The translations under genes and the position numbers were made by a program. DNA of 64,000 bases. Origin: Ktedonobacterales bacterium (GTDB lineage Bacteria > Chloroflexota > Ktedonobacteria > Ktedonobacterales > JADMIN01). The stretch covers positions 124-64,123 of the forward strand of contig JAICVS010000003.1 of NCBI GenBank assembly GCA_025935195.1, in the 5' to 3' direction. This document shows positions 13,932 to 37,361 of this stretch, piece after piece (position 1 is the stretch's first letter; each line of letters begins with the position of its first letter). Below the pieces are notes generated by a model. That model did no database searches, was not told the DNA's origin, and saw only the letters and a program-made list of their open reading frames with translations.

Positions 13932-15077
13932 TCAGCCTCCCAGCGCGCGGGCGATGACGACGCGCTGAATCTGGTTGGTGCCTTCGTAGATCTGGCAGAT
14001 CTTGGCGTCGCGCATCATGCGCTCGACGGGGAACTCTTTCATGTATCCGTAGCCGCCGAGCACCTGGATGGCGTCGTTGGTGACTTCGATGGCGATGTCG
14101 GAGGCGTAGGTCTTGGCGATGGCGGACTCACGGCTGAAGCGCGACACGCCGGCGTCCATCAGCTCGCCGGCATGGTAGACCAGGCGGCGCGCGGCCTCGA
14201 CTTTGATGTCCATGTCGGCGAGCATGAACTGGACGGCCTGGTTGTCGAAGATCGGCTTGCCGAACTGGACGCGCTGTTTGGCGTACTGGACGGCGAAATC
14301 GAGCGCGCCCTGGGCGATGCCGAGCGCCTGGGCGGCGATGCCGGGGCGGGTGCGGTCGAGGGTGGCAAGGGCGATCTTGAAGCCCTCGCCCTCTTTGCCG
14401 AGCAGGTTCGCGGCGGGGATGGCGCAGTCTTCGAAGACCAGCTCGCCGGTCTGGGAGCCGCGGATGCCCATCTTGTTCTCGATCTTGCCGAGGTGGAAGC
14501 CGGGGGTGCCGTCCTCGACGACGAAGGCGGAGATGCCGCGCGTGCCGGTGGCGGAGGGGTCGGTGACGGCGAAGACGGTGTTGATGTGGGCGATGCCGGC
14601 GTTGGTGATGAAGTGCTTGAGGCCGTTCAAGACGTAGGTGTCGCCGCGACGCTCGGCTTTGGTGCGCATGGCGCCGGCATCGGAGCCGGAGCCGGGCTCG
14701 GTGAGCGCGTAGGCGGCGAGCCATTCGCCGGTGGCGAGCCTGGGGATGAAGCGCTGCTTCTGTTCCTCAGTGCCGGCGAGCAGGATGGGCAGCGCGCCGA
14801 GCTGCTGGACGCAGAGCAGGAGCGCGGTGGTGGCGCAGGCTTTGGCTAGCTCCTCGATGGTCATGAGGATGCTGACCTCGCTGGAGCCGAGGCCGCCGTA
14901 CTGCTCGGGGAAGGGCATGGCGAGGATGTCCTGCTTGGCGAGCAGCTCCTTCATATCCCAGGGAAACGCGCCCTCGGCGTCAATCTGGGCGGCGCGCGGG
15001 GCGACTTGTTCACGGGCGAGGTCGCGCACCATCTCGATCAGCATTTGTTCTTCGGAAGAAGCTCGCTCGACGGCCAT
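13932..15077 (-). CDS. Acyl-CoA dehydrogenase
   Basis: ALTEPGSGSD, LNGLKHFITN, KMGIRGS, RVQFGKPI, GGYGYMKEFPVERMMRDAKICQIYEGTNQIQR; AAGGAG RBS. Confidence 0.96.
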   Translation of the reverse strand: MAVERASSEEQMLIEMVRDLAREQVAPRAAQIDAEGAFPWDMKELLAKQDILAMPFPEQYGGLGSSEVSILMTIEELAKACATTALLLCVQQLGALPILLAGTEEQKQRFIPRLATGEWLAAYALTEPGSGSDAGAMRTKAERRGDTYVLNGLKHFITNAGIAHINTVFAVTDPSATGTRGISAFVVEDGTPGFHLGKIENKMGIRGSQTGELVFEDCAIPAANLLGKEGEGFKIALATLDRTRPGIAAQALGIAQGALDFAVQYAKQRVQFGKPIFDNQAVQFMLADMDIKVEAARRLVYHAGELMDAGVSRFSRESAIAKTYASDIAIEVTNDAIQVLGGYGYMKEFPVERMMRDAKICQIYEGTNQIQRVVIARALGG

Positions 15078-15235: not shown

Positions 15236-15512
15236 GCTCGCGGCACTGAAGTGCCGGCGCACGGCACGGCTGGGGCTGAATCCCTACGGATGCTCGGCGC
15301 GGCAATGTTCACCAGAGAGGTCAACATTGCCGTTTTTGCCGCTTTTCGATGTTGCATCGGGCGCATCCTCCGCGCGAATCCGCAATTCAAGCGGCTTTGC
15401 CGCTCCCGTGAACGTGACATTGCGCGTTCTGGGCGGCAAAAGCGGCAACGATCTGGCAAGAAACGGCAAGATGTGGCAACGGATGGCAATGCCGGCGGCA
15501 AAAACGGCAAGG
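15236..15512. repeat. Dispersed intergenic element copy 1 (REP-like hairpin doublet + GGCAA/TTGCC array)
   Basis: 28 bp identical to 36533-36560; 15301-15450 aligns without gaps to 36647-36796 (106/150 by hand count). Confidence 0.85.
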
Positions 15513-15535
15513 GTACGCGGGGAGATATGGGACAT
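15284..15535 (-). CDS. Possible 83-aa protein encoded across element copy 1
   Basis: AGGAGGT 5 nt before the ATG at 15535. This frame is similar to a minus frame of copy 2 (RSLPLLPP...GKNGNV), but the similarity may only reflect DNA motif conservation. Confidence 0.35.
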   Translation of the reverse strand: MSHISPRTLAVFAAGIAIRCHILPFLARSLPLLPPRTRNVTFTGAAKPLELRIRAEDAPDATSKSGKNGNVDLSGEHCRAEHP

Positions 15536-15576
15536 TTCACACCTCCTGTGGACTGACTCGTCGTCATTTGCCGCCG

Positions 15577-15604
15577 CCCCGGCATGAATGCCGGGGGTAA
15601 TCCC
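15577..15604. repeat. REP-like palindrome family A (CCCCGGCATGAATGCCGGGG-GTAATCC)
   Basis: Palindrome with a conserved TAATCC tail; further copies at 19075, 37465, 54087 and 63012, with variants elsewhere. Confidence 0.85.
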
Positions 15605-15629
15605 GGTTCGGCGCCACGCTGATAGAACT

Positions 15630-15658
15630 AATTTACCATAAACGAGCATGGATAGCAA
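15630..15658 (-). promoter_or_regulatory. Sigma70-type promoter reading into element copy 1
   Basis: TTGCTA-17 bp-TAAATT with extended -10 TG. Confidence 0.45.
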
Positions 15659-15829
15659 GGGCGTAAGGGGCCAGCGGCGTATGGGACGGCCGGCGATTGA
15701 AATCGCGCCTGGAGGGCGTGCCGCCGCGACGTCCGCCGTCGCGGACTCGAGAGAGAGGAAAGCGGTGGGCGAGGGTGGTTCCCTCACCCATCCGCCGTCT
15801 CGCGCGGAATTCCGGTGCGGCGTCGGGCG

Positions 15830-36532: not shown

Positions 36533-36895
36533 GCTCGCGGCACTGAAGTGCCGGCGCACGCCAATGGGCTGAAGCCCCACGGAGATGCCAACAGTGCGAT
36601 ACGACGCGATATGTTCTCCAGGCAGGGAGGAGATGTGGTGGGGGATGGCAATGTTGACTGGTGCGGTGAACATTGCCGTTTTTGCCGTTTTTCGATTTTG
36701 TGGCGGATGGCGATCCGGCGCGGAGGCAGAATTGAAGCCGGTTTGCGCGACGTGGCAACTTGACGTTTTGTGTTATGGGCGGCAAAAGTGGCAAGGATCG
36801 GCAAGAGATGTTTGCCGCTTTCATTGCCACTTGGGGTGTAAGGGGTTGCCGTTCGTCGTGCCGTCCGCGATTCTGTGATGTCATTTTCATTGCCG
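36533..36895. repeat. Dispersed intergenic element copy 2 (REP-like hairpin doublet + GGCAA/TTGCC array)
   Basis: See copy 1; the core motifs are offset by a constant 21346 bp. Confidence 0.85.
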
Positions 36896-36964
36896 CCACT
36901 CTCCCCCGCTCCCCGCTTCCCGCCGCGCCTGCTTGTGAGGTCTCGCCACTGCTTCATCGAGATC

Positions 36965-36994
36965 AATATGGAACGTACGCTTCAATTTTGTCAA
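36965..36994 (-). promoter_or_regulatory. Sigma70-type promoter reading into element copy 2
   Basis: TTGACA-18 bp-CATATT on the minus strand. Confidence 0.45.
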
Positions 36995-37227
36995 GGTGAA
37001 GCGGTGAGAGCGGGAAGGTATCGGGCAGGAACGTGGCATGCGCGAGGGCGGGCTGGGTTGGGTAGGGAACGTGGCGTGCATAGGGAGCCGGCTGGCGGTT
37101 GAAACCGCCCCTGGAGGGCGTGCCGCCGCGAAACCGGCCTGCGCCGCTTGGGGAGAGAGCGGGTGATGCGTGGCGAGTCGGGCCGTATACGGGGAGCGCC
37201 GGAGGGCGGAGGGCAGGTCAGCGGCTC

Positions 37228-37290: not shown

Positions 37291-37361
37291 TCCGGGATCG
37301 TCTAGTGGTAGGACGACTGACTCTGGATCAGTTAACCGTGGTTCGAATCCACGTCCCGGAG
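37291..37361 (+). tRNA. tRNA-Gln (anticodon CTG), CCA not encoded
   Basis: Acceptor stem TCCGGGA/TCCCGGA; D arm GTCTAGTGGTAGGAC; anticodon arm ACTGA-CTCTGGA-TCAGT; T arm CGTGG-TTCGAAT-CCACG. Confidence 0.97.

Follow-up and report, generated by a model that had tools for sequence, protein, structure and literature searches.

A family of old, diverged intergenic repeats with a predicted promoter and a phased pentamer array in a soil Ktedonobacterales genome

A dispersed repeat upstream of an acyl-CoA dehydrogenase gene

The DNA analyzed here (hereafter, the window) is a stretch of 64,000 nucleotides (assembly GCA_025935195.1, contig JAICVS010000003.1, positions 124 to 64,123) from an uncultured soil member of the Ktedonobacterales, whose genome comprises 4.74 Mb in 278 contigs and is 87.6% complete. 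An acyl-CoA dehydrogenase gene lies on the minus strand of the window (13932-15077; Pfam Acyl-CoA_dh_N, _M, and _1, E values down to 3e-52), and upstream of it, on the same strand, lies a non-coding element at 15301-15668. This element is one copy of a genus-restricted, non-coding family of dispersed repeats, with approximately 160 old and diverged copies. A preliminary description of the window had singled out 15236-15660 as a cassette with a helically phased GGCAA array, the first of two copies, and had attributed it to a non-autonomous dispersed element. Its non-coding, non-autonomous, and dispersed character was borne out, and its copy number and limits had to be revised.

Searching the source genome by blastn with 15236-15660 as the query gave 136 matches of at least 100 bp. 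An nhmmer profile built from 65 copies gave 210 matches, including 161 copies that span more than 100 model positions, in place of the two first proposed; 101 matches extend to the promoter end, and 88 copies pass a full-length cutoff (model start ≤70, end ≥405). Alignments were made of 84 full copies, 83 copies with 250-bp flanks, 81 copies anchored at the promoter, and, for folding and coding tests, 106 ungapped copies. The family unit is approximately 365 bp long, and its sense strand is the minus strand of the window. Across the 83 flanked copies the conserved block starts at GGCAATGTTGAC and stops approximately 365 bp on. Conservation is at background outside this span, being lost about 10 bp upstream of the -35 hexamer of a predicted promoter at one end and immediately past ATTGCC at the other. 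The final conserved stretch, as read on the minus strand, consists of CCTTGACA, 17 nt, and TGGTAAATT and forms the promoter end, with which the element begins. The opposite, 3' end is sharp and lies immediately beyond the outer arm of a 12-7-12 palindrome. Copy 1, at 15301-15668 on the minus strand, is a full-length nhmmer match of about 368 bp that includes a repetitive extragenic palindromic (REP) insertion of about 20 bp; the cassette thus runs from 15301 to about 15668 and not from 15236 to 15660.

The second copy in the window (36639-36806, minus strand; nhmmer model positions 58-225) is core-only, consisting of the palindrome (36647-36677), a pentamer dimer, a middle block, and the first three array units. 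Its match to copy 1 was confirmed as an ungapped alignment of 15301-15450 with 36647-36796 (106/150, 70.7%). The remaining half (36800-37010) is unique in the genome, with no second match, and carries a promoter-like TTGACA-18-CATATT at 36994-36965. The gene that copy 2 points at encodes a sodium:solute symporter. The promoter-like site faces away from a plus-strand tRNA gene (37291-37361; Rfam RF00005, 63 bits) about 300 bp from it.

Mean pairwise identity among the 84 full copies is 65.5% and the maximum 82.8% (3,486 pairs), although near-identical copies could be lost in assembly. The family has no match among 72,556 plasmid and 50,697 phage records or in Rfam 15, where both gathering and permissive thresholds were used. 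A literature search on repetitive intergenic sequence of Ktedonobacteria found no published description, and it is on this search together with those of Rfam, plasmids, and phages that we call the family undescribed. In sum, many more than two copies exist, the spacing of their motifs is conserved, and no match to a known insertion sequence (IS), to the end of a miniature inverted-repeat transposable element (MITE), or to an Rfam family was found.

Architecture of the element

The 5' end of the element has the form of a near-consensus sigma-70 promoter with an extended -10. In copy 1 (15630-15658, minus strand) this predicted promoter consists of a -35 TTGCTA (15653-15658), a 17-nt spacer, and TGG preceding a -10 TAAATT (15630-15635). 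Of the 81 promoter-anchored copies, 57 have TTGACA as the -35, 74 have a 17-nt spacer, and 63 have TG before the -10; at least 9 of 12 promoter consensus positions match in 52. The minus-strand promoter noted in the preliminary description is therefore present, as the conserved 5' end of the element and not as a flanking feature, and the array consequently falls inside the probable transcript as UUGCC repeats. It is followed by an initial transcribed (start-site) box, AGTTCTATCA in sense (15620-15629, minus strand), with columns 90-99% conserved in the 84-copy alignment. Several copies also carry an operator-like palindrome of the ACTGAC-N4-GTCAGT type about 20-30 bp upstream of the -35.

The array occupies 15435-15510 and reads GGCAA on the plus strand and UUGCC in the presumed transcript (minus strand). 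It sits about 130 bp downstream of the promoter, after a C-rich, G-poor stretch of about 130 nt. All eight units reported for copy 1 are present, with starts at 15435, 15444, 15455, 15465, 15475, 15485, 15497, and 15506, and the end units pair as dimers at 9-bp spacing. The inverted TTGCC units at 15327 and 15336 were likewise found, and further inverted units lie at 15397 and 15568. The window as a whole holds 194 GGCAA matches, against 125.6 ± 10.5 in 100 shuffles, none of which reaches 194. The number of exact units per copy ranges from 2 to 10 and is mostly 5-7. The earlier observation that motifs and a spacing of about one helical turn are kept while spacers diverge holds well beyond copies 1 and 2, with 9-12 bp spacing in 84 full copies; neighboring units lie 9 bp apart 131 times, 10 bp 94 times, 11 bp 64 times, and 12 bp 45 times. 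Array spans are quantized at 41-42, 50-52, 60-63, 71-73, 81, and 92-94 bp, and the span per interval is 10.1-10.3 bp for arrays of 5 to 10 units, giving a period of about 10.2 bp whatever the unit number.

Three further parts lie downstream of the array. The middle block (15383-15391, minus strand) is of the CTTGAATTC type on the sense strand (block CTTGAATTCGGCATTCGAGAGGAGGA) and is followed by GGCATTCGAGAGGAGGA, with distances compared over 62 copies: from the last array unit to CTTGAATTC there are 48 nt, free of insertions and deletions, in 57 of the 62, and from CTTGAATTC to the 3' dimer 49 nt, equally indel-free, in 56. Length variation is almost confined to the array. The 3' dimer (15327-15340, minus strand; sense GGCAAAAACGGCAA, plus strand TTGCCGTTTTTGCC) is nearly invariant over the 84 copies, and its unit is common to other genera. 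It takes part in the inverted repeat of the preliminary description, which was recovered as a 15/17 match between CATTGCCGTTTTTGCCG (15325-15341) and CGGCAAAAGCGGCAACG (15433-15449), 91 bp apart. The element closes with the 12-7-12 palindrome, GGCAATGTTCAC-CAGAGAG-GTCAACATTGCC on the plus strand (15301-15331; element on the minus strand), after whose ATTGCC conservation ends. Copies differ in the orientation of the 7-nt palindrome spacer (cgcgcca in some and tggcgcg in others, for example), a sign that short inversions may have occurred at a hairpin or cruciform in the DNA. Against a mean identity of 65.5%, conservation reaches 90-100% in five features: the predicted promoter, the start-site box (AGTTCTATCA), the array pentamers, the CTTGAATTCGGCATTCGAGAGGAGGA middle block, and the dimer at the 3' end.

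Genomic context and transcription

Gene calls were made with a crude heuristic based on G+C at third codon positions (GC3), which gave 3,625 calls over 81% of the genome with over-extended starts, and the gene counts that follow should be read accordingly. Of 156 copies, 111 (about 71%; 64/87 full copies and 47/69 core-only copies) have a downstream gene that shares the strand of the element; for the upstream gene the count is 70 of 144. From the 63 same-strand downstream genes of full copies, 40 were sampled, of which 35 have Pfam matches; these are varied housekeeping genes with no common theme, and include thyX, cysS, gcvT, uvrB, rph, sdhC, and prmC, together with genes for an XPB-type helicase, a penicillin-binding protein (PBP), shikimate dehydrogenase, two ParA-like ATPases, and three acyl-CoA ligases.

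The acyl-CoA dehydrogenase locus was compared with its relatives in metagenomes. Of the 80 best related loci, two carry the element, those with 98% and 100% protein identity. In the 12 relatives at 82-89% identity whose upstream DNA was read, the element is missing, and a promoter native to the locus, with a TTGAC-type -35 and a TATAAT-type -10, lies 60-150 nt ahead of the start codon. The source genome has kept the TATAAT at this gene, with no -35 at the right distance, which at this one locus fits a takeover by the element promoter. The NUDIX gene is not syntenic in these relatives, so the locus shows lineage-specific presence only and no precise empty site.

Contigs from four sequencing runs (DNA runs plus one RNA-library run) were also inspected. 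Those from the DNA runs have the arrangement seen in the window, and none joins across the element.

Flanking and inserted repeats

Several features once assigned to the cassette belong to other repeats. The 28-bp GC-rich, REP-like hairpin at 15236-15263 is, as the preliminary description had it, identical at 36533-36560. It lies outside the element, occurs at 7 exact places in the genome (24 with at most 4 mismatches), and is within 150 bp of an element copy at only 2 places, both in the window. A contig with 98% protein identity at the neighboring gene holds a different hairpin repeat at this position. The 28-bp hairpin is a separate REP-like family; it is often trailed by a GGGCTGAA(G/T)CCC hairpin, and similar hairpins occur in another Ktedonobacterales metagenome-assembled genome (MAG; L032, about 200-330). 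Both this hairpin and the GGGCTGAA hairpin are REP-like repeats unrelated to the cassette.

The REP-type hairpin CCCCGGCATGAATGCCGGGGG (15569-15589) was inserted into copy 1 only; the family consensus lacks it, and it is likewise no part of the cassette. This hairpin, of the form CCCCGGCAT-GA-ATGCCGGGG, is common in the source genome and in at least 2 other genera of the family, and the 15569-15589 stretch alone gives short matches in other genera. The AGGAGGT-ATG that had been counted with the cassette is also confined to copy 1 and missing from the consensus. On the promoter side, the multi-copy stretch 15701-15781 (CGGCGATTGAAATCGCGCCTGGAGGGCG type) has raised contig depth in both DNA runs and in the RNA-library run, and is probably a further repeat family.

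Distribution among relatives

To establish the range of the family, 31 genomes were searched: the source genome, which is the sole representative of its genus among them, 18 others of its family, and 12 from other families of the order. The full element is present only in the source genome, and the others match its REP insertion or dimer region only. The dimer itself is more widely distributed. The 15-mer TTGCCGTTTTTGCCG occurs 188 times in the source genome, against 11 for its reversed control. Five genomes from three further genera of the family hold 57, 49, 29, 15, and 15 matches, and the 124 genomes of the three other families essentially lack it (0-2 matches). In the other genera, dimers form clusters of 3-14 units in long intergenic regions, nearly always in one orientation. 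In genus g16 the strand reading GGCAA points toward a same-strand downstream gene in 9 clear cases versus 3 among 20 loci, by the same crude gene calls. Since the dimer occurs in other genera of the family and the element does not, the TTGCC-N4-TTGCC dimer is, judging from its sequence distribution, older and more widespread than the 365-bp element.

An exact 18-mer scan of species-representative genomes gave at least 67 loci, mostly single chance matches in unrelated phyla. No full element is found among the matches listed, and three of them, from two Ktedonobacterales MAGs, show related dimer repeats. Three loci in relatives have further features. One contig (G002:C12, 1-1200) has more than 1 kb of CCGGCAA units on its T-poor strand, where an open frame would read as a low-complexity, Lys/Ala/Pro/Thr-rich (AKTAK-like) protein; the stretch may be coding or a very long array that is not. 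Another (G015:C3, about 240-256) has GAACATATGTTC, a perfect GAAC-N4-GTTC palindrome resembling the SOS boxes of Gram-positive bacteria, just downstream of a promoter-like TGcTATACT and before a dimer cluster. In the third (G013:C103, 103-2969), an FGE-sulfatase/TPR protein and then a short, weak reverse-transcriptase (RVT_1) frame lie beside a GGCAA dimer cluster. A link between reverse transcriptase and the dimer array was considered and rejected, since the locus resembles a diversity-generating retroelement (DGR) and the proximity was judged coincidental.

Coding capacity, RNA structure, and mobility

The element carries no coding signal. The best frames are stop-free in only 61 and 70 of the 106 ungapped copies, codon-position entropy is flat with no relaxation at the third position, and a peptide repeat is incompatible with units spaced at 10 and 11. 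Two candidate products were rejected. A minus-strand small protein (AGGAGG-ATG, 83 aa, 15284-15535) has no Pfam match, and its start and Shine-Dalgarno sequence are absent from the consensus. A plus-strand hydrophobic, type-I-toxin-like peptide, with its ATG in GGCAATG, is open in 61 of 106 copies, often loses its start, and shows no codon periodicity.

RNA folding gave no consensus structure. RNAalifold on the 106 ungapped copies yielded -0.2 and -1.0 kcal/mol on the two strands, and when every pair of alignment columns was scanned, only invariant motifs paired with one another, with almost no covariation. Variants in the palindrome arms (GGTGAC, GTTCAC, and ACTTTGCC) are mostly uncompensated (more than 20 copies lack compensation, and two, C53 and C102, have it). 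The fold of copy 1 is better than those of its shuffles (z = -3.8), but so is the fold of the opposite strand (z = -3.9), so single-sequence folds do not separate the strands.

Hallmarks of mobile elements were also sought. No more than TTGAC is common to the 5' end, which is a C-rich run with TTGACA, and the reverse-complemented 3' end (GGCAATGTTGAC), and in 72 copies the longest common flank word has a mean of 4.92, versus 5.16 in mismatched pairs, giving no sign of target duplication, although a fuzzy 5' boundary and age could hide eroded ones. The two inverted pairs of copies within 6 kb, both of which were examined, yielded no autonomous partner and enclose no transposase; one encloses PFK and the other MFS and ChrB genes, all of them housekeeping genes. 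By eye, no -35-like box was seen at a fixed distance past the 3' end in the 36 flanks listed, as would be the trait of a promoter-targeting Mutator-like MITE (ISKra4/TnGBS). An HUH or rolling-circle origin, composed of a hairpin and iterons, was rejected because the loop due to hold a conserved nick site is the least conserved part. The 12-7-12 form of the palindrome recalls a tyrosine-recombinase attachment site, in which inverted core arms flank a 6-8-bp spacer that partner sites have in common and an integrase gene is close by; the spacer here differs among copies.

A promoter-plus-leader cassette and its alternatives

We favor, at a probability of roughly 55%, the reading that the element is a selected promoter-plus-leader cassette in which the pentamers are recognition units for an oligomeric factor. 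Each copy would fire its promoter toward the neighboring gene, and the pentamers would be recognized by one oligomeric factor that sets how much transcription passes. That the promoter, pentamers, and internal lengths are kept at approximately 65% identity, over more than a hundred loci and ahead of core genes such as cysS, thyX, uvrB, and rph, points to selection on each copy. Two versions of this mechanism, which we rate about equally, can be envisaged. In version (a), a DNA-binding oligomer would coat one face of the array and pair it with the inverted dimer and palindrome, forming a roadblock or loop. In version (b), the nascent UUGCC tract would load Rho or another multimeric RNA-binding protein, and the terminal palindrome would serve as a pause or stop site.

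Version (a) is suggested by the presence of the pentamer in both orientations within one element, including the 3' dimer and the palindrome arms, and by one more GGCAA, which precedes the -35 by about 16 bp in 6/32 and 10/36 of the copies listed. The 12-7-12 form of the palindrome is operator-like or recombinase-core-like, and the 3' dimer is more conserved than any possible pairing partner. A reader of double-stranded DNA that oligomerizes along one face of the array would account for conservation of the full pentamer, its opposite orientations, the fixed lengths, and the 10.2-bp period. The nucleoprotein scaffold of the preliminary description is thus still a live idea, given the pentamer in both orientations, segment lengths that are fixed without an RNA fold or reading frame, and the period of about 10.2 bp; its iteron or origin part found no support. 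A dispersed chromosome-organizing site for a nucleoid protein, which is conceivable, is counted under this version. Version (b) is consistent with a sense-strand C/G ratio of about 2 over alignment columns 61-270 and with a ratio above 1 in the 78-nt array window of all 84 copies (84/84), where the median is 1.93 versus 1.00 for 13,323 intergenic windows taken as controls. The source genome has a rho gene (contig C180), the layout loosely fits a published heuristic for Rho-dependent terminators (PMC6407284), and the one-orientation dimer clusters of genus g16 run, by the crude gene calls, mostly along the direction of the downstream gene.

Several observations weigh against the cassette reading. 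About 60 copies are core-only, with the palindrome-proximal half kept and the promoter half gone, and 45 of 156 copies face an opposite-strand gene by the crude gene calls, which indicates that the element is not simply a leader. The promoter of copy 1 itself has 8/12 consensus matches and falls under the promoter-scan threshold. In the one RNA-library run, contigs cover 15296-15376, which is multi-copy and could be DNA carry-over, and 15701-15781; these show neither transcription nor its absence. Tandem-repeat slippage alone yields 10-bp steps in array length, so the quantized spans are no proof of a helical-phase constraint. With respect to version (a), no binding protein is known for the array, and a double-strand reader does not predict the strand-asymmetric composition or the one-orientation clusters of sister genera. 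With respect to version (b), Rho needs only YC dinucleotides, leaving full UUGCC conservation, the GGCAA-sense dimers, and the fixed lengths unexplained; moreover, the spacing is 9-12 nt and not 11-13, and the terminal stem is often mismatched.

The alternative that we take most seriously, though we consider it unlikely, is a decaying miniature transposon, either MITE-like or a mosaic resembling REPs and bacterial interspersed mosaic elements (BIMEs), whose GGCAA units would be subterminal or arm sites of a transposase or recombinase and whose motifs would be leftovers with no present host function. Multi-site transposon ends and integrase arm sites carry sets of direct and inverted motifs that resemble the pentamers. 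The high copy number, intergenic position, and sharp 3' end at the palindrome are in keeping with such an origin, as are the mosaic structure (about 100 copies reach the promoter end), the palindrome spacer in both orientations, and the lineage-specific presence at one orthologous locus. However, the terminal inverted repeat is limited to the common TTGAC, no target duplication was found in the 72 copies, no pair is more than 83% identical, and neither of the two inverted pairs examined encloses a transposase. Neutral relics at 65% identity would not be expected to hold promoter and pentamers at 90-100%, or approximately 100 nt free of indels.

A stand-alone small-RNA gene family seems more doubtful still. 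Under this explanation the unit would be a promoter, an RNA of about 330 nt, and a closing hairpin, with UUGCC pairing with the element's own GGCAA dimer (a 15-16-bp duplex) or acting as a sponge for a trans-acting RNA or protein. The unit ends coincide with the promoter and the terminal hairpin, and in most copies the first dimer of the array is complementary to the 3' dimer over 16 nt; among 7 copies with a C-to-U variant in the 3' dimer, 2 have the matching G-to-A change and 4 keep G, which leaves a G-U pair. The favorable fold of copy 1 is offset by the equal behavior of the opposite strand, and the 84-106 copies aligned have no consensus structure, almost no covariation, and hairpin variants that are mostly uncompensated; the segments proposed to pair are invariant, so that covariation cannot test the pairing. 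There is also no U-tract terminator and no Rfam match. Least probable by far is an iteron-type replication origin, partition site, or chromosome-organizing site. Plasmid iterons and parC-type centromeres consist of short direct repeats at about one helical turn, and the array resembles them by analogy, but approximately 160 chromosomal copies over 278 contigs beside varied housekeeping genes do not fit the iteron or origin role once suggested for it. No rep or par gene is associated with the loci examined, the plasmid collection has no match, and the conserved promoter and transcript-like strand asymmetry belong to the unit.

Relation to known systems and implications

By analogy, the nearest known kinds of sequence are promoter-bearing dispersed repeats, such as Correia elements and mobile promoters. 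The element shares with them a conserved, predicted internal promoter and, by the crude gene calls, same-orientation placement before unrelated genes. Promoter-carrying repeats are usually young and nearly identical, and have been treated as selfish. Correia elements (CREE/NEMIS) of Neisseria are small non-coding intergenic repeats, present in hundreds of copies, that carry promoter elements, affect neighboring genes, and are co-transcribed with them. Their copies, 100-155 bp long, resemble one another and have terminal inverted repeats of 26 bp together with a TA duplication. The family described here is likewise made of many small non-coding intergenic copies carrying a predicted promoter, but its unit is approximately 365 bp long with no inverted termini or duplication found, its copies share about 65% identity, and a phased pentamer array forms its core. 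REPs are imperfect palindromes of 20-40 bp, which together with BIMEs make up mosaic intergenic repeats. The element is also a mosaic intergenic repeat, but it is ten times longer, is not palindromic overall, and appears to bear a promoter.

Arrays of repeats at about 10-11 bp bound cooperatively by oligomeric proteins are known at one or a few loci, as in ParR-parC of plasmid R1, MraZ boxes, and the PhoP direct repeats of Streptomyces. The present array is similar in having 5-10 short direct repeats at about one helical turn near a (here predicted) promoter. It differs in occurring at approximately 160 loci, in having no known cognate protein, and in lying about 130 bp downstream of the promoter.

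Putative mobile promoters have been outlined as groups of highly similar promoters reused before unrelated genes within a genome (PMC3575422). Set against that outline, the element is old and diverged and adds about 330 bp of conserved downstream sequence. The RhoTermPredict heuristic looks for a 78-nt C>G tract in which C recurs at intervals of 11-13 nt, with a GC-rich hairpin no more than 150 nt further downstream (PMC6407284). To this model of a Rho-dependent terminator the element is a loose fit, with 5-10 units at 9-12 nt and the palindrome about 115 nt on; the palindrome stem is AT-rich for this genome and often mismatched. As a putative terminator it also departs from the model (PMC6407284) in conserving a full pentamer, which occurs in the G/A-rich orientation as well. 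From the promoter-bearing repeats the family differs in its size, its age, the lack of inverted termini and duplications, the conserved internal lengths, and the phased pentamer array.

These comparisons bear on what such repeats contribute to their host. If the decaying-transposon explanation were correct, this would be an ordinary new repeat family. A bolder form of the cassette reading, which we put forward tentatively and think improbable as it stands, is that the element wires more than 100 housekeeping genes of one genus to one oligomeric factor reading the helically phased array. This factor might be a global DNA-binding regulator not described before, which would form a loop or roadblock immediately past the shared promoter, or the array might be a Rho-loading pad tuned in its sequence. 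Selection on a repeat family would then have made the regulon and kept it, around a dimer that, being shared by sister genera, predates the element. Repeats of this kind may be working cis-regulatory parts and not debris. If the cassette reading is true, TTGCC-N4-TTGCC would be a recognition motif directly usable to find the factor, and the family would illustrate clearly how repeats can build a layer of control across a whole genome, in a phylum that has been little studied.

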